This document shows positions 2,122 through 35,588 of a stretch of 35,822 nt of DNA, one piece after another (position 1 is the first letter of the stretch; each line of letters begins with the position of its first letter). The translations under genes and the position numbers were made by a program. The DNA comes from a virus (taxonomy: Duplodnaviria > Heunggongvirae > Uroviricota > Caudoviricetes): the IMG/VR virus record IMGVR_UViG_2681813232_000002, one strand, 5' to 3'. The notes beneath the pieces were generated by a model. It saw nothing but the letters and a program-made list of their open reading frames with translations, was not told the origin of the DNA and did no database searches.

Positions 2122-2532
2122 TTAGTGCGGAAATATTTGTGTAGTGTTCTGAATGTTCTCAGTAAAGAGTAATGAATTATCAAAGGTATAGTAATACCTT
2201 TTGTTTTCGTGGATATTTGTAATCCATCTGAAAACCCCTGCAGTAGCAAGATTTTTCCTGTATTCGTAAAATGATAACTCTCCTGATTTGAATCCTTTTA
2301 AGGTGGCTTCTATAAGGCATTTATTTTTTGAAAATCTTACATTTACAACCTTACCCTGTCCTTTTATTAAAACCGTATTATCGTTTTCAAGAACAAGATG
2401 AATATTCTCTGTAGCTAAATAGTAAATGTAATGTGAGACATTGTGACGTTTTAGTTCAGAATAAAACCAGTGATAGTTTAAATTATTTCGCACTTTATCG
2501 AATATTTGTTTAAAAATGGCAACCTGAGCCAT
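2122..2532 (-). CDS. DUF1398-family protein (YbcV/YdfO-like prophage accessory protein)
   Basis: AT-rich ORF. Start placed at the internal Met (MAQVAIFK...), which has SD GGAAGG 7 nt upstream and gives 136 aa. Sequence ([16 protein letters not shown]...[24 protein letters not shown]) matches my recollection of E. coli DLP12 YbcV. Confidence 0.6.
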
Positions 2533-2588
2533 TGTAGTACCTTCCATGTGATATGAGGGGCGTAGTCTGCACGATTATCTAAATTGCT

Positions 2589-2822
2589 TCAATCTGGTCT
2601 GATCTGTTTTCTGAGCAATTCAGTAATGTCACTCTTTTCTTTGTTTGCTTCAGGAGAAACTCTTTTTTCTGAGCACAGTCTCCGGCGGCAGGCTTCAATG
2701 ACCCAGGCTGAGAAATTCCCGGACCCTTTTTGATCAAGAGCGATGTTAATTTGTTCAATCATTTGGTTAGGAAAGCGGATGTTGCGGATTGTTGTTCTGC
2801 GGGTTCTGTTCTTCGTTGACAT
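2589..2822 (-). CDS. Small basic protein, YlcI/DUF3950-like, possibly ribbon-helix-helix
   Basis: 77-aa ORF (MSTKNRTRRTTIRNIRFPNQMIEQINIALDQKGSGNFSAWVIEACRRRL...). Same gene-order context as ylcI next to ybcV in DLP12. Confidence 0.45.
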   Translation of the reverse strand: MSTKNRTRRTTIRNIRFPNQMIEQINIALDQKGSGNFSAWVIEACRRRLCSEKRVSPEANKEKSDITELLRKQIRPD

Positions 2823-2989
2823 GAGGTTGTCCCGTATTCAGTGTCGCTGATTTGTATTGTCTGAAGTTGTTTTTACGTTAAGTTGATGCAGATCAATTAA
2901 TATGATACCTGCGTCATAATTGATTATTTGACGTGGTTTGATGGCGTAGATGCACGTTGTGACATGCAGATGATAATTATTATCATTTT

Positions 2990-3210
2990 GCGGGTCCTTT
3001 CCGGCGATCCGACAGGTTACGGGGCGGCGACCTCGCGGGTTTTCGCTATTTATGAAAATTTTCCGGTTTAAGGCATTTCCGTTCTTCTTCGTCGTAACTT
3101 AATGTTTTTATTTAAAATACCCCCTGAAAAGAAAGGAAACGACAGGTGCTGAAAACGAGCTTTTTGGCCTCTGTCGTTTCCTTTCTCTGTTTTTGTCCGT
3201 GGAATGAGCA
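2990..3210 (+). other. cos: Lambda-type cos site: 12-nt cohesive end GGGCGGCGACCT at 3022-3033, flanked by cosQ/cosB-like sequence up to the Nu1 start
   Basis: ...CCGACAGGTTACG|GGGCGGCGACCTCGCGGGTTTTCGCTATTTATGAAAATTTTCCGG... matches the joined right and left ends of lambda as I recall them. Confidence 0.85.
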
Positions 3211-3730
3211 ATGGAAGTCAACAAAAAGCAGCTGGCTGACATTTTCGGTGCGAGTATCCGTACCATTCAGAACTGGCAGGAACAGGGAATGCCCGTTCTG
3301 CGAGGCGGTGGCAAGGGTAATGAGGTGCTTTATGACTCTGCCGCCGTCATAAAATGGTATGCCGAAAGGGATGCTGAAATTGAGAACGAAAAGCTGCGCC
3401 GGGAGGTTGAAGAACTGCGGCAGGCCAGCGAGACAGATCTCCAGCCAGGGACTATTGAGTACGAACGCCATCGACTTACGCGTGCGCAGGCCGACGCACA
3501 GGAGCTGAAAAATGCCAGAGACTCCGCTGAAGTGGTGGAAACCGCATTCTGTACTTTCGTGCTGTCGCGGATCGCAGGTGAAATTGCCAGTATTCTCGAC
3601 GGGATCCCCCTGTCGGTGCAGCGGCGTTTTCCGGAACTGGAAAACCGACATGTTGATTTCCTGAAACGGGATATCATCAAAGCCATGAACAAAGCAGCCG
3701 CGCTGGATGAACTGATACCGGGGTTGCTGA

Positions 3731-27246: not shown

Positions 27247-30200
27247 ATGGAACCCATATCAATTACAGTGGCAACTTATGTAGCAACTAAACTTATTGAT
27301 CAATTCATCTCTCAAGAAGGATATGGTTGTATTAAGAAAGCATTATTCCCCCAAAAAAGATATGTGGATAGATTATATCAACTAATTGAAGAGACGGCAA
27401 TTGAGTTTGAAGAAACATATCCAGTAGAAAGTGGAGCAATACCATTTTATCATTCCGAACCATTGTTTGAGATGTTGAATGAGCACATCTTTTTTAAAGA
27501 GTTCCCTGACAAAGAGATATTATTAGACAAGTTCAAAGAATATCCAAGTATCACTCCCCCAACTCAACAACAACTCAGCCTTTTTTATGAGATGTTATCA
27601 TTAAAAATCAATAATTGTTCGAAGTTAAAAAAGCTACATATCGAAGAAACGTATAAAGAAAAAATATTCGATATTAATGAAGAGCTCATTCAAGTCAAAC
27701 TTATTTTACGGTCTATAGATGAGAAACTAACTTTTCACTTAAGTGATGGTTGGTTAAATGAAAAAAATAGTCAAGCAATAGCTGACTTGGGAGGTCGATA
27801 CACACCCGAACTCAACGTAAAGCTAGAAATAGCAGAGATATTTGATGGCCTCGGTAGAACTAATGATTTTTCTAAAATATTTTATTCGCATATAGATAGC
27901 TTTCTGGTCGCTGGAAAGAAATTACATAGTTGCGATGTAATTTCCTCAGAATTATTTGAAATAAACCAGTCCTTAAAAGAAATTTCTGATATATATCAGG
28001 AGATTAATTTTTCTAAATTAGATGAAATCCCTATAAATAAATTTAATAACTATGTTTCTAGCTGCCAGACAGCTATTGGCGGAGCGGTATCAATATTGTG
28101 GGAACTCCGAGAAAAGTCAGAGCAAGTAGGTGAAACCAAGCATTACAGTGATAAGTATTCATCTACTCTGCGAATGCTTCGGGAATTTGACTATGCGTGC
28201 AATGAATTACGTATATTCATTAATTCAACAACAGTGAAGTTGGCTAACAACCCATTCTTACTTCTCGAAGGAAAAGCAGGAATTGGTAAGTCTCATTTAC
28301 TGGCTGATGTGATTAAAAATCGAATTGCTTCTGGGTATCCTTCACTACTCATACTAGGGCAACAACTTACTTCAGATGAATCTCCATGGTCACAAATCTT
28401 CAAGAGATTACAGCTTAAAATCACTTCTCGTGAATTCCTAGAAAAACTGAATTTATATGGCAAAAAAACAGGAAAAAGAGTCTTAGTTTTTATTGATGCT
28501 ATTAATGAAGGTAATGGAAATAAATTCTGGAATGACAATATTAACAGTTTTGTCGATGAAATCAGATGCTTTGAATGGCTTGGTCTGATAATGTCAGTCA
28601 GAACAACATATAGAAATGTAACAATTTCACATGAGAATGTTGTGCGAAATAATTTTGAAATTCATGAACATATTGGATTCCAGAACGTTGAGTTGGAAGC
28701 GGTTAGTCTATTTTATGATTATTACAATATTGAGAGGCCTTCATCTCCTAACCTTAATCCAGAGTTTAAAAATCCTCTATTTCTTAAGTTATTGTGTGAA
28801 GGCATTAAGAAAAATGGTTTAACCAAAGTGCCTGTTGGATTTAATGGGATTTCAAATATTTTTAACTTTTTAGTTGAAGGGGTAAATAAATCATTAGCAT
28901 CGCCAAAAAAATATGCATTCGATCCCAGTTTTCCTCTTGTTAAAGATGCTCTCAATGAAATCATAAAATTCAAATTAGAGATTGGTCGTAATAGTATTTC
29001 ACTTAAAGATGCTCACTCAGTGGTTCAATCTGTAGTTAATGATTATGTTGCTGATAAAACCTTCCTCAGCGCCTTGATTGACGAAGGATTATTGACTAAA
29101 GGCATAGTGAGAAATGATGATAATTCTACTGAGGAAGTAGTTTATGTGGCTTTTGAAAGGTTTGATGATCATTTAACTGTTAATTTTTTATTAAATGATG
29201 TTGAAAATATCGAAAGTGAATTTAAGCCTGATGGTCGTCTGAAAAAATATTTTCATGATGAATGTGATTTTTATATAAAATCGGGAATAGTAGAGGCGTT
29301 GTCTATTCAATTGCCAGAAAGGTATGAAAAAGAGCTTTATGAATTTCTGCCGGAGTTCAGCAATAATCTTAAATTACTAGAAGCCTTTATTGATAGCTTG
29401 ATATGGCGCGATATTAAGGCTATTGATTTCGAAAAAATTAGACCTTTCATCAATGAACATGTTTTTAAATTTAAAGATAGTTTTGATCATTTCCTCGAGG
29501 CAGTGATCTCTATTTCAGGTTTAGTTGGCCATCCCTTTAATGCTAATTTCTTGCATGATTGGCTAAAAGATTATTCTTTGGCAAATCGAGATTCGTTTTG
29601 GACTACAGAACTTAAATATAAATATAGTGAAGACTCAGCATTTAGGCATCTAATCGATTGGGCATGGGCCAGAACAGATAAAAGCTTTGTTTCGGATGAG
29701 TCAATCGAGCTAGTTGCAACTAGTTTATGCTGGTTTTTAACTTCTAGTAACCGAGAACTTCGAGATTGCTCAACTAAGGCTTTAGTGAGTTTACTCGAGC
29801 CAAGAATTCCTGTATTGAGAAAAATAATTGATAAGTTTTATGGTGTAAATGATCCTTACGTTTGGGAAAGAATATTTGCAGTTGCATTAGGCTGTACATT
29901 GCGAACTGATAATATTAAAGAACTAAAATATTTAGCCGAAACTGTTTACCAAAAGGTATTTTGTTCTAAGTATGTGTATCCAAATATATTACTTAGAGAT
30001 TATGCTAGAGAGATTATTGAATTTGCTAATCATCTTGGATTGGAACTTGAAAGCATTGAATTATCCAAGACTAGACCACCCTACAACAGCATTTGGCCTG
30101 ACAAGATTCCTTCAAAAGAGGAACTAGAGTCCCTTTATGATAAAGAACCTTATCGGGAACTCTGGAGCTCTATTATGGAAGATGGTGACTTTTCACGATA

Positions 30201-31701
30201 TACTATTGGAACAAATTATAATCATTCTGATTGGTCTGGTTGCAAGTTTAATGAAACCCCTGTTGACCGTAAGCAAGTTTTTAAAACTTTCAAATGTAAA
30301 CTAACTGATCAACAAAAAGACTTGTATGATGCCACAGATCCTTTCATTTATGATGATAAATGCGAAGGAATTAAATTTGGTCGTGTGGTCGGTAGAAAAG
30401 CACAGGAAGAAATAAAGGCGAGCAAGAAATTATTTAAGAATTCATTGTCATACGATCTGTTAAGTGAGTTTGAAAATGAAATAGAGCCATACCTGGATCA
30501 TAATAATAATCTGCTGGAAACTGATAAACACTTTGATCTTCGACTAGCTCAACAATTTATATTCAATCGTGTTATAGAGCTTGGTTGGGATCCGGAGAAG
30601 CATGGTAATTTTGACCAACAAATAGGAACTGGACGTGGACGTAGAGAGGCATTCCAAGAACGGATTGGTAAAAAATACCAATGGATTGCTTATTATGAAT
30701 ACATGGCAAGGCTAGCCGATAATTTTACTCGTTTTGAAGGTTATGGTGACGAACGAAAGGAAAATCCATACCAAGGGCCATGGGAGCCTTACGTAAGAGA
30801 TATAGATCCCACTATCTTACTTAAAGAAACTGGAACGAAAAAAATAAGCAATAAAGAAATGTGGTGGCTTAATGATGAAGTGTTTGATTGGACTTGCTCT
30901 AATGAAGACTGGGTTAAAAGTTCTACTACTATAACTAATTCATATGCTTTTATTGAAGTTAAAGATGATAATGGTGATGAATGGATAGTATTAGAAAGTC
31001 ATCCATCATGGAAAGAACCAAAAATTATTGGAAACGATGATTGGGGGCACCCACGAAAAGAGGTTTGGTATCAGATCAGAAGTTATATCGTTAAAGTTGA
31101 AGAATTTGAAAATTTTAGATGTTGGGCAATAGCTCAAGACTTTATGGGCAGGTGGATGCCGGAATGTACTGATAGATACCAATTATTTAATAGGGAGTAC
31201 TATTGGTCCGAAGCATTTAAGTCTTTTAAATCAGATTATTATGGTGGATCTGACTGGACTTCGGTAACAGACCGGGAGTCTGGAGCTAAGATAGCTGATG
31301 TTAGTGTCACTTCGATTAATTATTTGTGGGAAGAGGAGTTCGACAAATCAAAAATAGAAACTTTGAATTTTTTGAAGCCTAGTAACTTAATCTTTGAAAA
31401 GATGGGATTAAAAAGTGGGGAAGTAGAGGGTAGCTTCAATGATGAAAATGGAACTATGGTTTGCTTTGCAGCTGAAGCTGTATATGCTTCAAAGCCGCAT
31501 CTACTTGTTAAAAAAGAACCATTTTTAACAATGTTAAGGGACAATGGTTTTGAAATCGTTTGGACATTATTAGGTGAAAAGGGCGTTATAGGGGGCTCAC
31601 TCATATCAAGTCATCATTATGGTCGACAGGAGTTTAGTGGAGCATTTTATTATGAAGACAGTCAGCTAACAGGAAGTCATAAAACTAGCTTTACGAGATA
31701 A
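27247..31701 (+). CDS. Large P-loop NTPase (STAND/NACHT-like Walker A and B), 1484 aa; candidate single-gene anti-phage defence protein
   Basis: Strong SD (GGAAGAAG) 7 nt upstream of the ATG. Walker A FLLLEGKAGIGKSHLLADV (about residue 335); Walker B RVLVFIDAINEG (about residue 410). Visibly AT-rich compared with the flanking phage genes. Sits in the b-region position between the tail fibre and attR. Confidence 0.85.
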   Translation: MEPISITVATYVATKLIDQFISQEGYGCIKKALFPQKRYVDRLYQLIEETAIEFEETYPVESGAIPFYHSEPLFEMLNEHIFFKEFPDKEILLDKFKEYPSITPPTQQQLSLFYEMLSLKINNCSKLKKLHIEETYKEKIFDINEELIQVKLILRSIDEKLTFHLSDGWLNEKNSQAIADLGGRYTPELNVKLEIAEIFDGLGRTNDFSKIFYSHIDSFLVAGKKLHSCDVISSELFEINQSLKEISDIYQEINFSKLDEIPINKFNNYVSSCQTAIGGAVSILWELREKSEQVGETKHYSDKYSSTLRMLREFDYACNELRIFINSTTVKLANNPFLLLEGKAGIGKSHLLADVIKNRIASGYPSLLILGQQLTSDESPWSQIFKRLQLKITSREFLEKLNLYGKKTGKRVLVFIDAINEGNGNKFWNDNINSFVDEIRCFEWLGLIMSVRTTYRNVTISHENVVRNNFEIHEHIGFQNVELEAVSLFYDYYNIERPSSPNLNPEFKNPLFLKLLCEGIKKNGLTKVPVGFNGISNIFNFLVEGVNKSLASPKKYAFDPSFPLVKDALNEIIKFKLEIGRNSISLKDAHSVVQSVVNDYVADKTFLSALIDEGLLTKGIVRNDDNSTEEVVYVAFERFDDHLTVNFLLNDVENIESEFKPDGRLKKYFHDECDFYIKSGIVEALSIQLPERYEKELYEFLPEFSNNLKLLEAFIDSLIWRDIKAIDFEKIRPFINEHVFKFKDSFDHFLEAVISISGLVGHPFNANFLHDWLKDYSLANRDSFWTTELKYKYSEDSAFRHLIDWAWARTDKSFVSDESIELVATSLCWFLTSSNRELRDCSTKALVSLLEPRIPVLRKIIDKFYGVNDPYVWERIFAVALGCTLRTDNIKELKYLAETVYQKVFCSKYVYPNILLRDYAREIIEFANHLGLELESIELSKTRPPYNSIWPDKIPSKEELESLYDKEPYRELWSSIMEDGDFSRYTIGTNYNHSDWSGCKFNETPVDRKQVFKTFKCKLTDQQKDLYDATDPFIYDDKCEGIKFGRVVGRKAQEEIKASKKLFKNSLSYDLLSEFENEIEPYLDHNNNLLETDKHFDLRLAQQFIFNRVIELGWDPEKHGNFDQQIGTGRGRREAFQERIGKKYQWIAYYEYMARLADNFTRFEGYGDERKENPYQGPWEPYVRDIDPTILLKETGTKKISNKEMWWLNDEVFDWTCSNEDWVKSSTTITNSYAFIEVKDDNGDEWIVLESHPSWKEPKIIGNDDWGHPRKEVWYQIRSYIVKVEEFENFRCWAIAQDFMGRWMPECTDRYQLFNREYYWSEAFKSFKSDYYGGSDWTSVTDRESGAKIADVSVTSINYLWEEEFDKSKIETLNFLKPSNLIFEKMGLKSGEVEGSFNDENGTMVCFAAEAVYASKPHLLVKKEPFLTMLRDNGFEIVWTLLGEKGVIGGSLISSHHYGRQEFSGAFYYEDSQLTGSHKTSFTR

Positions 31702-32084: not shown

Positions 32085-32130
32085 ATTCGTAATGCGAAGG
32101 TCGTAGGTTCGACTCCTATTATCGGCACCA
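32085..32130 (+). repeat. 46-bp copy of the 3' end of tRNA-Thr(CGU) (thrW-type), ending in CCA; att core duplicate (probable prophage attR), not a functional tRNA
   Basis: ATTCGTAATGCGAAGGTCGTAGGTTCGACTCCTATTATCGGCACCA matches the anticodon-loop to 3' end of E. coli tRNA-Thr(CGU) as recalled. The D-arm and 5' acceptor strand are absent upstream. Confidence 0.8.
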
Positions 32131-32294
32131 TCACCTAGTTTTCCCAAGTCAACCCACATCAACAAAATCATTTAAAAACATATATATTACGTTGTTTTCA
32201 TACGTTTGAGGTCAACCCTTGTCTCTTGAAATCAACACGCGGTTGGGGGCACAATCAGGGGCATGTTCTGTTCGATCTAGGAAATGTGCCCCCA

Positions 32295-33485
32295 ATGATG
32301 CTGAATGCCCGCAAGGTTGAAGCTGCGAAAGGAAAAGAGAAGAGCTACAAGCTGTTTGATGGAGGTGGCCTATACCTTCAGGTCGAACCTAATGGCTCGC
32401 GTTACTGGCGTATGAAATACCGTTTTGCTGGTAAAGAGAAACGATTGTCCTTTGGTGTTTATCCAACAGTCACACTTGCTGATGCCAGACAAAAACGAGA
32501 AGACGCGAAGAAACTACTCGCAGCAGGTGAAGATCCCGGCGAAGTCAAAAAAGCCAAAAAGCAGGCTTTAAATGCAGCGAGTGAGACACTTAACCCATTC
32601 AGAGAAGTGGCGTTAGAGTGGCACAAAATGAAATCACCCAAATGGTCTGAGGGCTATGCTTCCGACATCATTGAGGCATTCGAGAAAGACATTTTCCCGC
32701 ATATTGGGCACAGACCTATAGCTGATATTCAGCCCCTTGAACTGCTTGAAGTTCTGAGGTTGATAGAAGCTCGAGGCGCTATGGAGAAAGCGAAGAAAGT
32801 CCGTCAGCGATGCGGTGAAGTTTTTCGCTATGCCATCGTAACGGGTAGGGCAATCTACAATCCGGCACCGGATCTTGCCAGTGCGATGCAAGGACATGAA
32901 GCAGTCCACTATCCATTCCTCAAAGCCAACGAACTACCGGAGTTCTTTAATGCCCTTAATTCTTATTCAGGAAGTCCAATTGTATTGTTGGGGGCGCATT
33001 TACTTATCCTGACAGGTCTACGAACTGGAGAACTACGAGCAGGTGAGTGGCGAGAGGTGGATTTTGATAATGCGGTGTGGGAGATCCCAAAAGAACGTAT
33101 GAAAATGCGTAGGAGCCATATTGTCCCGTTGTCAAAACAAGCATTATCCCATCTCAAAAGTTTGAAAGAACTAACTGGGAACTACCCGCTGATGTTCCCT
33201 GGACGCAACGATCCCAGCAAATTTATGAGTGAAGCAAGCATTAATCAGGTGTTTAAACGTATTGGATATGCAGGGCGTGTTACGGGGCATGGTTTCAGGC
33301 ATACGATGAGTACAATCCTACATGAGAAAGGATTTAACAGCGCTTGGATTGAAACCCAGCTTGCTCATTCGGACAAAAACTCTATTCGTGGAATTTATAA
33401 CCATGCCCAATATCTCGAAGGGAGAAGAGAAATGATGCAATGGTATGCTAATTATTTATCTGAGCAAATTGGTACTCATAAATGA
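32295..33485 (+). CDS. int: Tyrosine recombinase/integrase, P4-like (genomic-island type)
   Basis: MMLNARKVEAAKGKEKSYKLFDGGGLYLQVEPNGSRYWRMKYRFAGKEKRLSFGVYPTVTLADAR... is the typical P4-type N-terminal arm-binding domain. C-terminal catalytic region has R...HGFRHT...Y-like motifs. The ORF track starts at 32226 but there is no ATG before 32295. Confidence 0.9.
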   Translation: MMLNARKVEAAKGKEKSYKLFDGGGLYLQVEPNGSRYWRMKYRFAGKEKRLSFGVYPTVTLADARQKREDAKKLLAAGEDPGEVKKAKKQALNAASETLNPFREVALEWHKMKSPKWSEGYASDIIEAFEKDIFPHIGHRPIADIQPLELLEVLRLIEARGAMEKAKKVRQRCGEVFRYAIVTGRAIYNPAPDLASAMQGHEAVHYPFLKANELPEFFNALNSYSGSPIVLLGAHLLILTGLRTGELRAGEWREVDFDNAVWEIPKERMKMRRSHIVPLSKQALSHLKSLKELTGNYPLMFPGRNDPSKFMSEASINQVFKRIGYAGRVTGHGFRHTMSTILHEKGFNSAWIETQLAHSDKNSIRGIYNHAQYLEGRREMMQWYANYLSEQIGTHK

Positions 33486-34306
33486 ATATTTTAAAAATTA
33501 ATAATACTGATTCTCTGCTCAGAGATTACTACCAGTTGGATGAAGCTTCAGAAAAAATTGGTTGTAGTGAAAAGGATATACTCTGGTTTGCCAGAGAACG
33601 AGATGTAGAGCTATGCATGGAATTCCATGATGATGAGTATGATGTTTCATGTGGTTTGAAGATTGATGGTCAAATAGATGAGTTCTTATCTAATCTGAAA
33701 TATTTACCACGAGATAGAAATGGCAATATTATGTTGTCAGACTTAAGTTCTATAAGAATCCCTGATGAAGATAATTTAATTGATAAAAATGGTTTTATTC
33801 GATGCTTCATATCCGGTTTATGGGCTGTTGATTATGAATATAAAGATCTGTTAGTTAAGCATGAGGGGCAACCGGATTCCTGGCCTATTCATTTTCTACT
33901 GGCGGGTACGCCTAATATAAATTGTAAGGTAATTCTTTATGTAAATTATGATGAAAAAGAAAATTATTATCTTTTTGAGGTTTTGTGGATTACAAAGGTA
34001 CAGATTCAAAAATTCATTGATATAGTCTTATGCGAACAAAAGCGGATAAAAAACGCCAATAAATATAAATCACAATCTGAGGCGCAAAAACAAAAACATG
34101 CTGTTCCTCGAGCTGAAATACTCATGGCTATTATTTCGCTCTATCATCGTGATATGAGGCTAAGAAGAGAGAGTCCAGCAGCGATAGCTGATTATCTTTT
34201 TCAACATGCCAGTGAGTTCTGGCCTAAGACCGGAGAACCGCCTTTGAGCTATGATACTGTTGTTAGTTTGCTACGTAGTTGCATGAAAAACATTAAGTTT
34301 AACTAA
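33482..34306 (+). CDS. Hypothetical protein, AT-rich, translationally coupled to the integrase (ATGA overlap)
   Basis: 274-aa ORF with markedly AT-rich codon usage; no family recognised. Confidence 0.7.
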   Translation: MNILKINNTDSLLRDYYQLDEASEKIGCSEKDILWFARERDVELCMEFHDDEYDVSCGLKIDGQIDEFLSNLKYLPRDRNGNIMLSDLSSIRIPDEDNLIDKNGFIRCFISGLWAVDYEYKDLLVKHEGQPDSWPIHFLLAGTPNINCKVILYVNYDEKENYYLFEVLWITKVQIQKFIDIVLCEQKRIKNANKYKSQSEAQKQKHAVPRAEILMAIISLYHRDMRLRRESPAAIADYLFQHASEFWPKTGEPPLSYDTVVSLLRSCMKNIKFN

Positions 34307-34431
34307 ATATTAACAATTGTTGTGGCTAATGATTTTGAATTTTTTTCATTAGTCACATTTTTCTCATTTATAACCTATGTTTTAATTTTCCGTGTTGAAG
34401 CCAATAGACTTAGATAAACGGAGAATGATGA

Positions 34432-34722
34432 ATGTTATCTAAACATGATAATACTACTTTGCAACGACCTTCAATGGATTCTCTGATCGATATGAAGTTT
34501 ATTACTTCCGATTGTTTATTAAGTGATAAATGGATTTATCGATTGATTTCTCTGAATCGCTTTCCAAAACCTATAAAAATAGGTCGGATGTCACGATGGC
34601 GCGCTGCTGATTATTATAAGTGGCGAGATGGGTTTGAAGAAAACTCAGGTCAACAGTTTGAGGGGATGAGAAATAAGGCAAGAGCAATTAATAAAGGGAA
34701 TAGATTATCACCTACTCCCTAA
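34432..34722 (+). CDS. alpA: AlpA-family (phage_AlpA) helix-turn-helix regulator / excisionase-like protein
   Basis: Segment DMKFITSDCLLSDKWIYRLISLNRFPKPIKIGRMSRWRAADYYKWRD fits the AlpA pattern (HTH, FPKP.K.G, W..E...W). Start codon uncertain (34432, 34474 or 34492). Confidence 0.6.
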   Translation: MLSKHDNTTLQRPSMDSLIDMKFITSDCLLSDKWIYRLISLNRFPKPIKIGRMSRWRAADYYKWRDGFEENSGQQFEGMRNKARAINKGNRLSPTP

Positions 34723-34754: not shown

Positions 34755-34929
34755 TTAGCCTTTAGGGTCAATCCCGCGTGATTGGAGTTCTTTGCGTAAA
34801 ATTCTTTTAATCCAAGTTGCCAACGCGCTATCTCCATCTTTGCGCATTTCGTTTTCGAGTTGCAACCTAAAATCGTCGGTAAGACGCATTTGGAATGGTG
34901 GAGAACGTTTCTCTTGTGGTGTTGACATG
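34755..34929 (-). pseudogene. Arc-like ribbon-helix-helix repressor gene, apparently disrupted by a 1-nt frameshift
   Basis: From ATG (34929) the frame reads MSTPQEKRSPPFQMRLTDDFRLQ then shifts. The -1 frame continues LENEMRKDGDSALATWIKRILRKELQSRGIDPKG to a TAA. The joined sequence has an Arc-like strand-helix-helix pattern. Shift is at a T-run near 34860-34862. Confidence 0.35.
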
Positions 34930-34951
34930 GTAATTACCCTAGAATATGATG
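34923..34951 (+). promoter_or_regulatory. Candidate sigma70 promoter: TTGACA, 17-nt spacer, TATGAT, reading rightward
   Basis: TTGACA at 34923-34928, 17-nt spacer, TATGAT at 34946-34951; near-consensus hexamers. Confidence 0.5.
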
Positions 34952-34967
34952 ACTACATGGTAATTAC
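34930..34967 (+). promoter_or_regulatory. Two copies of the perfect 10-bp palindrome GGTAATTACC flanking the -10 (candidate operators)
   Basis: ACATGGTAATTACC occurs at 34926-34939 and 34954-34967; the palindrome cores are 28 bp apart centre to centre. Confidence 0.45.
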
Positions 34968-35059
34968 CATTGTAAGTATAGTTCGCTTGTAAAAGCAATG
35001 CCCGATTGTGCGGGAACACAAATCGGGCATTTAACCAACCGTTATAAGAGGTAACGAAG

Positions 35060-35236
35060 ATGGCTAAACAGAAGTGTACCTGGTTATTTGCGGCGATCAA
35101 CCGCAGTCAACGCAATGCCCGTCCTGTGATGTTAAGGATCACCGCAGATAACGAGCGGTCAGCGCGGCGCAGACTTGCCCCGGACTATGTACTGAGCTTT
35201 GCCGGGCGCATTCCCTGCGGAGGTGAACATGCGTAA
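35060..35236 (+). CDS. Small ORF (58 aa), hypothetical; first gene downstream of the candidate promoter
   Basis: SD GAGG 7-8 nt upstream of the ATG (MAKQKCTWLFAAINRSQRNARPVMLRITADNERSARRRLAPDYVLSFAGRIPCGGEHA). Its stop overlaps the next start. Below the ORF-track cutoff. Confidence 0.4.
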   Translation: MAKQKCTWLFAAINRSQRNARPVMLRITADNERSARRRLAPDYVLSFAGRIPCGGEHA

Positions 35237-35588
35237 TTATCCGCATCCCGGCGAACGCTGGCAGCATGAACGTGGCTGGACGGTCACGATTATCCGATTA
35301 ATAGAAGCCTCGCCCTCTGTGGCGCTGGTTAATCCTGAATTCAGCTGTGAAGTGCTGATACGTCATGACAGCGACAACCAGCTTTCTTCCTGCCCTCTGG
35401 CATGGTTTGAACAGCGATATACGCGCCTGTTTGATGTACCGCTCTTTAAGCCTGCACCAGCTCCTGCAGGCGGTAGTGGTTCCGGCCCGCTGACACTGCA
35501 TCCGTCTGTGCTATTTATCCGCTGGCGGGAGCGTAGCATATGGCGTTCTGCTGAGCCTGATGACGGTCACTATTCAAAGTTTCTCTGA
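35229..35588 (+). CDS. Hypothetical protein (119 aa)
   Basis: Strong SD GGAGGTG just upstream of ATG 35229 (MRNYPHPGERWQHERGWTVTII...). The ORF track starts at 35199 but the internal start has the better RBS. Confidence 0.55.
   Translation: MRNYPHPGERWQHERGWTVTIIRLIEASPSVALVNPEFSCEVLIRHDSDNQLSSCPLAWFEQRYTRLFDVPLFKPAPAPAGGSGSGPLTLHPSVLFIRWRERSIWRSAEPDDGHYSKFL

Follow-up and report, generated by a model that had tools for sequence, protein, structure and literature searches.

A fixed, hypervariable gene between the integrase gene and alpA of a P4-like satellite at tRNA-Thr

Does the interval between the integrase gene (int) and alpA of a P4-like phage satellite hold exchangeable cargo or a gene that belongs to the satellite itself, and what might such a gene do? 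We studied this question in IMG/VR record IMGVR_UViG_2681813232_000002, a stretch of 35,822 nucleotides (nt) assigned to the Caudoviricetes and referred to here, at its full length, as the window. It contains part of a P4-like satellite integrated at a tRNA-Thr gene, in which a 274-amino-acid (aa) open reading frame (ORF), here given the working name X, lies between int and an alpA-like gene. A preliminary description, made from the sequence alone, had regarded this interval as a variable cargo position. We found that X is not cargo: in enterobacterial phage satellites with one particular int-alpA module, it belongs to the fixed backbone. It is also a hypervariable allele cassette, the alleles of which are swapped independently of their flanks.

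The int-X unit and the occupancy of the int-alpA interval

The features of the module in the window are as follows.

32295..33485, plus strand: P4-type tyrosine integrase gene (int), 396 aa from the PGAP ATG, annotated as WP_040075774.1
33482..34306, plus strand: X, 274 aa, second gene of the apparent int-X unit (ORF call and homologues)
34321..34370, plus strand: hairpin and U-rich tract, putative intrinsic terminator of int-X (RNA fold)
34371..34431, plus strand: conserved region 5' of alpA (motif ATGnTTnAAT ... GTTGA)
34432..34722, plus strand: AlpA/Vis-like small regulator or excisionase gene, 96 aa (Pfam and PHROG)

The ATG of X (33482-33484) overlaps the stop codon of int (33483-33485) by 4 nt in the arrangement ATGA (context CAT AAA TGA), exactly as the preliminary description had read it. 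The AT-richness that had been noted relative to int was also borne out, with a GC content of 0.344 versus 0.454 and a GC content at third codon positions (GC3) of 0.28 versus 0.41. This bias is present in every lineage and at all codon positions (GC3, 0.26 to 0.32), and at ca. 34% GC X resembles nearby cargo, such as the defense genes DRT3 (29 to 31%) and Avs2 (about 34%). The probability of 274 stop-free codons arising by chance at the base composition of X is ca. 1e-10. Given that homologues exist at 21 to 93% identity, and that comparison with a Citrobacter copy gave a ratio of nonsynonymous to synonymous substitution rates (dN/dS) of 0.11 at a dS of 0.26, X is a real gene.

The claim that X is tightly coupled to int held beyond the window, as the overlapping or abutting junction is conserved. 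Of 35 loci from the metagenome and viral collections, 31 had a spacing of -8 to +8 nt between the int stop and the first X start codon, and 4 had an apparent spacing of -41, probably owing to an overcalled upstream start. Among hand-annotated loci the spacing was -8 to +3 nt, the exception being one Klebsiella lineage with a gap of 92 nt. The far end of the unit is marked by a hairpin with a 12-bp stem (34321-34332 pairing with 34346-34357) followed by the U-rich tract, with a fold energy of -15 kcal/mol (z = -3.1). A strong hairpin is found directly 3' of the X stop in all lineages, changes in its arms occur on both sides in a way that preserves pairing, and in the related loci L005 and L024 it consists of a canonical stem and T-run (related loci are labeled L001, L004, L005, L006, L018, L019, L024, L054, and so on). 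It is probably the intrinsic terminator of the unit. Given the tight junction and this conserved hairpin, int-X looks like a two-gene transcription unit, with alpA apparently under separate control. The inverted repeat after X had also been considered as an operator, a candidate that we rejected because a terminator explains it better.

Between the hairpin and alpA, the columns at 34371-34431 are kept across elements with very different X alleles, and we infer that they contain the alpA promoter and leader, although a consensus promoter scan called no promoter there. We looked for operator-like repeats, both those present in the control regions of int as well as alpA and those particular to an X allele, and none was convincing. 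The AlpA-like protein itself matched Pfam Phage_AlpA at an E value of 4e-4, just below the cutoff, and PHROG 66 and 2790 (“excisionase and transcriptional regulator”). For int, the Pfam matches were Arm-DNA-bind_3 (9e-28), Phage_int_M (4e-35), and Phage_integrase (1e-25), and its mechanical ORF begins at TTG 32226, upstream of the PGAP ATG. A perfect 11-nt inverted repeat (TTGGGGGCACA / TGTGCCCCCAA, 32243-32295) ends exactly on the annotated int start codon and is possibly a regulatory site or a binding site for Int or AlpA.

To which extent the interval is occupied by X was apparent from a survey that took, as an unbiased sample, 146 loci with a relative of alpA from metagenome and viral collections, in which close alpA genes were defined by a hidden Markov model (HMM) score of at least 128 bits. 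All 39 loci with a close alpA and enough upstream DNA had an X family gene directly 5' of alpA, and int was directly in front of X in all 35 of those in which the sampled DNA included it. Counting all relatives with the same alpA type, 39 of 40 had an X homologue in the slot, as did every lineage checked by hand. The sole exception, L054 (alpA at 108 bits), has within the same int/alpA frame an unrelated ORF of 359 aa (2215-3294) with no Pfam match. The remaining, more distant alpA genes of the survey belong to canonical P4-like elements, in which alpA does not adjoin int and there is no X.

Cargo sites and defense hotspots are recognized by unrelated gene families occupying one slot among related elements, and the int-alpA slot of this satellite type, with one homologous family in nearly all of its carriers, showed the opposite: the same gene is found there across related islands. 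The idea that the interval is a variable cargo slot in which X is one of many unrelated passengers can still point to L054 and to EcCIMP1, another, characterized thrW island, where a small and unrelated ORF lies between int and alpA (EcCIMP1_002, rejected as a counterpart of X; PMC11773190). Set against the 39 of 40 loci and the hand-checked lineages, which extend to distant satellites of another class, it is highly improbable. The yfjH gene of CP4-57, which had been offered as an analogue, is on the opposite strand and unrelated (E = 21). X does resemble P4-like hotspot cargo in being AT-rich, in residing in a P4-like satellite, and in differing between closely related elements. However, the hotspot of this satellite type is at its far end, after delta, with DRT3 in the elements closest to ours and unrelated systems across relatives (DRT3, a cytidine deaminase, a NACHT protein, GmrSD plus HEPN, and an SMC/AAA gene). 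The known P4-like hotspot is located between psu/delta and the att/int side, i.e., between int and psu in canonical P4 (Rousset et al., 2022, as cited in PMC13586616 and PMC8628076). Thus, of the variability that had been proposed for the slot, what stands is that its alleles are extremely divergent and swapped independently of the flanks; unrelated cargo genes they are not. Whatever the role of X, the interval is backbone in this satellite type.

Among 5,426 complete Escherichia coli genomes, X was found in 66, every time adjoining int, and the integrase (at least 80% nucleotide identity) in 83. Most int carriers without X hold in the same slot X2, a homologue ca. 30% identical to X, and the family as a whole is present in about 79 genomes. 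Pantoea, Erwinia, and Citrobacter have syntenic satellites in which this slot is taken by homologues of 55 to 60% identity, and the order int-X-alpA was seen in P4-like satellites of all these genera and of E. coli. More distant homologues (21 to 25% identity) in Klebsiella and Pectobacterium also lie between a P4-type integrase and an AlpA gene, the integrase belonging here to another clade (only 27 to 31% identical to that of the window). Since these carriers have a D5-type primase and, in some cases, HK97-type capsid, protease, and portal genes, they are satellites resembling phage-inducible chromosomal islands (PICIs) or capsid-forming PICIs. On two short contigs with homologues of 25 to 31% identity, the C terminus of a window-like integrase ends 0 or -4 nt from the X start, and one of the two also has a closely similar alpA after X. 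A set of 185,579 species-representative genomes yielded only 3 loci with the family, and tblastn detected none in the INPHARED phage and PLSDB plasmid collections.

Variation and exchange of X alleles

The variability of X was measured on 39 distinct int-X-alpA triples, which provided 741 pairwise comparisons. Mean identity was 79% for Int, 73% for AlpA, and 42% for X (median, 31%), and X was the least conserved of the three in 687 pairs. Clustering at 50% identity left Int and AlpA in a single cluster each and divided X into six. Even where both flanks were at least 90% identical (69 pairs), X fell below 85% in 33 pairs, with a minimum of 26%, and integrases 95 to 96% identical can be paired with X alleles that share only 26 to 31%.

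L005 and L006 are 96 to 100% identical up to ca. nt 800 of int and again from ca. 20 nt past the X stop, but between those points identity drops to 55 to 85% (55 to 70% across X), with synonymous sites saturated in X versus a dS of 0.06 to 0.15 in the flanks. Between L018 and L019, dS was 0.30 for int, 0.14 for alpA, and 1.16 for X; the backbone of this pair is otherwise 90 to 97% identical, the other divergent patches being a small ORF after icd and the psu/sid-type region from ca. 12.9 kb. The window and L006 have int in common to within 20 nt of its end, and their X proteins are 29% identical. In unsaturated comparisons, the dN/dS of X ranged from 0.06 to 0.15, indicating that the gene is under purifying selection. 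The divergence has been imported and was not generated in place; the alleles are old and have been exchanged between otherwise near-identical satellites.

A conserved frame around deeply diverged, recombining alleles of one gene, with conserved ends and a variable middle, is also found in lambdoid cI-cro immunity regions and in HsdS. The likeness is in evolutionary pattern only, as we found no allele-specific operators for X. A second parallel is the Stl repressor of Staphylococcus aureus pathogenicity islands (SaPIs) and Rpr of PICIs. Like these, X has int on one side and the genes for excision and regulation on the other, is transcribed in the int direction, has a predicted helix-turn-helix (HTH)-like module, and diverges strongly between islands in which Int and AlpA remain similar, a pattern that would fit recognition of different helper phage proteins. 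X behaves like the hypervariable specificity genes of other mobile elements (Stl and immunity regions). The differences are nonetheless considerable. X is codirectional with alpA, with a terminator between them, while the Stl/Rpr-type repressor is divergent from the excision and replication operon; moreover, the HTH-like module of X is acidic and its C terminus is the most conserved part.

The X protein and what it may recognize

As had been stated from the translation alone, X has no recognized family. In Pfam, PHROGs, NCBIfam, and PADLOC, neither X nor 20 to 22 family members gave a consistent match; against PADLOC-DB 2.0, X was unmatched and 22 members yielded scattered weak matches, the best being mad1 (6e-4, in two members). 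Profiles of the whole protein, of the C-terminal domain, and of the N-terminal domain gave only chance matches among solved structures, and no solved or viral structure was matched by X. The C-terminal domain used alone as a query retrieved no other architectures, only fragments of the X family, and no paper on it came up when the literature was searched by accession number or by topic. The family is small (a set of 5.8 billion proteins gave 18 to 27 clusters, and one of 1.84 billion gave 24 representatives) and, as far as these searches reach, is an uncharacterized one with no known relatives or fold.

An AlphaFold2 model built from 17 sequences (mean predicted local distance difference test score [pLDDT], 78.7) predicts an N-terminal beta-alpha-alpha-beta-beta-alpha module (about residues 12 to 75), an alpha/beta middle part (about 76 to 171), a long helix (172 to 202), and a helical bundle (210 to 270); the model of a distant member has the same order of parts at lower confidence. 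Together with charge, this divides X into an acidic winged HTH (wHTH)-like module, possibly of the MerR/Xis kind (residues 1 to 75; net charge, -10), a variable acidic alpha/beta part (76 to 171; -6), a basic helix (172 to 205; +6), and a helical bundle (206 to 274; about +2), and the pattern of an acidic N-terminal and central part followed by a basic helix and C terminus recurs in most members. The bundle is the most conserved part, with a mean pairwise identity of 44%, compared with 35% for residues 1 to 48 and 17 to 24% in between. It contains most of the nearly invariant residues of the family (H206, A207, R210, L214, A216, W247, P254, L255, and L263), among which H206, R210, W247, P254, and L255 stand out; outside it only D32 and G112 are nearly invariant, and for that reason we read X as probably nonenzymatic. 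No catalytic-looking or NTPase motif was seen among the conserved residues.

Given the wHTH-like module, membership in the AlpA family was considered and rejected, since a comparison of the X N-terminal profile with an AlpA alignment in hhalign gave a probability of 0.13% (E = 0.43). X is 3 to 4 times longer than AlpA/Vis/Xis-TorI and MerR-type proteins: the AlpA/Vis (PF05930) and HTH_17 families consist of single-domain proteins of about 60 to 100 aa, while the 274 aa of X include three further predicted structural parts. It also differs from them in the net negative charge of its module and in having no Pfam match to Phage_AlpA, HTH_17, or MerR. X itself had no match in Pfam at all, and 1 of 20 members matched HTH_17 at an E value of 0.093.

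We tentatively favor, while stopping short of calling it probable, the reading that X is a specificity or sensor protein of satellite-phage conflict that is coproduced with Int. X would be made from the integrase transcript, with its translation coupled to int in most lineages. Its variable N-terminal and central part would recognize a variable target, protein or DNA, that belongs to a helper or to a competing phage or satellite, and its conserved basic C-terminal part would link this recognition to a conserved component of the satellite, be it the alpA/int control DNA, Int, or AlpA. The outcome would be regulation of induction, or interference, by an Stl-like logic. Because the alleles are old, under purifying selection, and swapped between near-identical satellites, their specificity is probably aimed outside the element. 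The variable part is unlikely to be matched to the element that carries it, since Int, AlpA, the att and int-upstream DNA, and the motifs upstream of alpA all stay the same while X changes. On the other hand, a constant link to the integration and regulation module is very likely, as the position of X and its coupling to int are almost invariant and the C-terminal domain is conserved. That the motifs upstream of alpA persist through changes of X allele fits a conserved contact of the C-terminal part combined with an external, variable partner.

A more specific version, which we consider decidedly unlikely, is that X serves some Gram-negative satellites as their helper-sensing regulator and does the work of Stl with a new fold. 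Here, the hypervariable N-terminal and central part would bind different helper phage proteins, AlpA or else the control region of alpA (or int) would be held by the conserved basic C-terminal domain, and an allele swap would retarget the satellite to a new helper. Whether Gram-negative PICIs possess a global repressor has been described as unclear, and the helper route to alpA activation as unknown (PMC6092414). If X were such a sensor, it would address how Gram-negative PICIs and P4-like elements sense their helper, and the natural allele swaps between near-identical satellites could reveal its target. Locked to the int-alpA module and bearing the evolutionary signature of a specificity determinant, X is a concrete candidate for a helper phage sensor or, failing that, for a single gene with a new role in exclusion or defense.

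Several observations weigh against the sensor reading in either form. The satellite already has an Arc-like repressor gene with an obvious operator and promoter (see below), which is a further difference from the SaPI Stl and PICI Rpr systems. Since the family is carried by a minority of satellites (the ca. 79 E. coli genomes given above), X cannot be a general solution to helper sensing. It is also dispensable for maintenance of the satellite, since 3 of the 66 E. coli copies are interrupted by IS1 and 2 more, of 824 nt instead of 825 (one of them annotated as two hypothetical proteins), appear to be frameshifted, the island being retained. The HTH-like module is a doubtful DNA binder because of its net negative charge, and from charge we infer that it is rather the C-terminal half that is the candidate interface for nucleic acid or for a conserved partner. 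Positive selection on X was not detected, dN/dS being well below 1 in every unsaturated comparison. Finally, recombination among satellites that compete for one att site could explain part of the allele diversity.

A stand-alone function in anti-phage defense or superinfection exclusion is possible, although rather unlikely. X would then be a moron that has become a permanent part of the int operon. Made together with Int while the satellite is integrated, it would block an incoming phage or rival satellite by attaching to one of its components. Its base composition, similar to that of the neighboring DRT3 and Avs2 genes, its behavior as an allele cassette between conserved flanks, and its dispensability, given the IS1 insertions, are all in line with this, and such satellites are known carriers of defense systems (PMC13586616). 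However, a single gene with no catalytic or NTPase motif, and for which 22 members gave no consistent PADLOC match, is not what this reading would lead us to expect, and across 39 of 40 relatives and two classes of satellites X keeps its slot and its coupling to int, while the defense cargo at the far end turns over completely.

The coupling to int could instead suggest an integrase cofactor or regulator, that is, a protein resembling recombination directionality factors or an architectural DNA-binding protein, which would shape the intasome or autoregulate int and be produced in step with Int. We regard this as unlikely: neither Int nor the DNA at att and upstream of int covaries with X (integrases 95 to 96% identical go with X alleles of 26 to 31% identity), its wHTH-like module is acidic (net charge of -10 over 75 residues), the profile comparison with the AlpA family was not significant, and the element already encodes an AlpA/Vis-type protein. 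Coexpression with Int would also suit an establishment or anti-defense factor made on entry into a new cell to counter host restriction or other immunity, for which the diversity of alleles and the acidity of the N-terminal and central parts (net charge of -16 over 171 residues) could be adduced. Yet this acidity is moderate in comparison with that of known DNA mimics, and there was no similarity to anti-restriction families in Pfam or PHROGs, so that we consider such a role very unlikely.

The satellite and its prophage neighbor

The other features of the window to which we refer are the following.

27247-31701, plus strand: Avs2 (AVAST type 2) defense gene, 1,484 aa, last gene of the lambdoid prophage, beside its att end
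32085..32130, plus strand: 3' 46 nt of tRNA-Thr (thrW), att junction that separates the lambdoid prophage (left) from the P4-like satellite (right)
34755..34928, minus strand: Arc/ribbon-helix-helix-like ORF, 57 aa, divergent from the icd-like operon (PHROG 228, “Arc-like repressor,” E = 0.003)
34922..34968, plus strand: strong sigma-70-like promoter TTGACA-17-TATGAT, near consensus (34922-34950), with a putative operator
35060..35236, plus strand: Icd-like host cell division inhibitor gene (NCBIfam NF033153, 5.5e-24), first gene of the rightward operon

The window is E. coli DNA. Positions 1 to ca. 32084 make up the late region of a lambdoid prophage, with tail genes, gpJ, lom, and a tail fiber gene. 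Genomes with an intact tRNA-Thr match from 32085 onward, and ARAGORN found no complete tRNA in the window. The att core, TCCTATTATC (32114-32123), is identical to the one reported for EcCIMP1 at the same site (PMC11773190). Prophage and satellite are thus in tandem at thrW, with only the 3' 46 nt of the tRNA between them. This tandem junction is present in eight of the best-matching E. coli genomes; in most others, the satellite directly follows an intact tRNA-Thr.

Within the window, the satellite reads int, X, the alpA-like gene, the minus-strand Arc-like gene, and the icd-like gene. The identical elements L001 and L004 provide the order beyond it: tRNA-Thr, int, X, alpA-like, icd-like, DUF5375, a TOPRIM/DUF927 primase (alpha), sid-like, psu, ogr/delta, DRT3a/b, and the right end. 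With int, alpA, the alpha primase, sid, psu, and delta together beside a tRNA att site, the element is a P4-like satellite. Its genes from int through X, alpA, alpha, sid, psu, and delta to the hotspot lie on one strand, and canonical P4 has a different gene order (PMC8628076).

The Arc-like gene is kept in L001 to L003, L019, and L021. The promoter at 34922-34950 is overlapped by two exact copies of the palindromic 14-mer ACATGGTAATTACC (palindrome GGTAATTACC), and the Arc-like protein and these copies are likely to form a repressor-operator pair for the main satellite promoter, that of the icd-like operon. Just 5' of the icd-like gene, a weak symR-like Rfam match (34994-35065, minus strand; 31.6 bits versus a gathering score of 61) covers the hairpin AATGCCCGATT/AATCGGGCATT and is probably due to chance or to a small regulatory hairpin. 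The ORF after icd (118 to 129 aa; 35199-35588 in the window and about 8690-9090 in L018), assigned to phrog_30862 with a weak DUF4222 match, is the second strongly divergent patch between L018 and L019 and may, like X, be a candidate helper-specific gene. Lastly, the thrW satellites of E. coli BR1220 and NCTC9100 (L005, 9213-10217; L006, 9218-9796) have a gene annotated as “P2 family phage major capsid protein” in elements that are otherwise P4-like, with an icd-like gene, a DUF927 primase and, in L006, delta.

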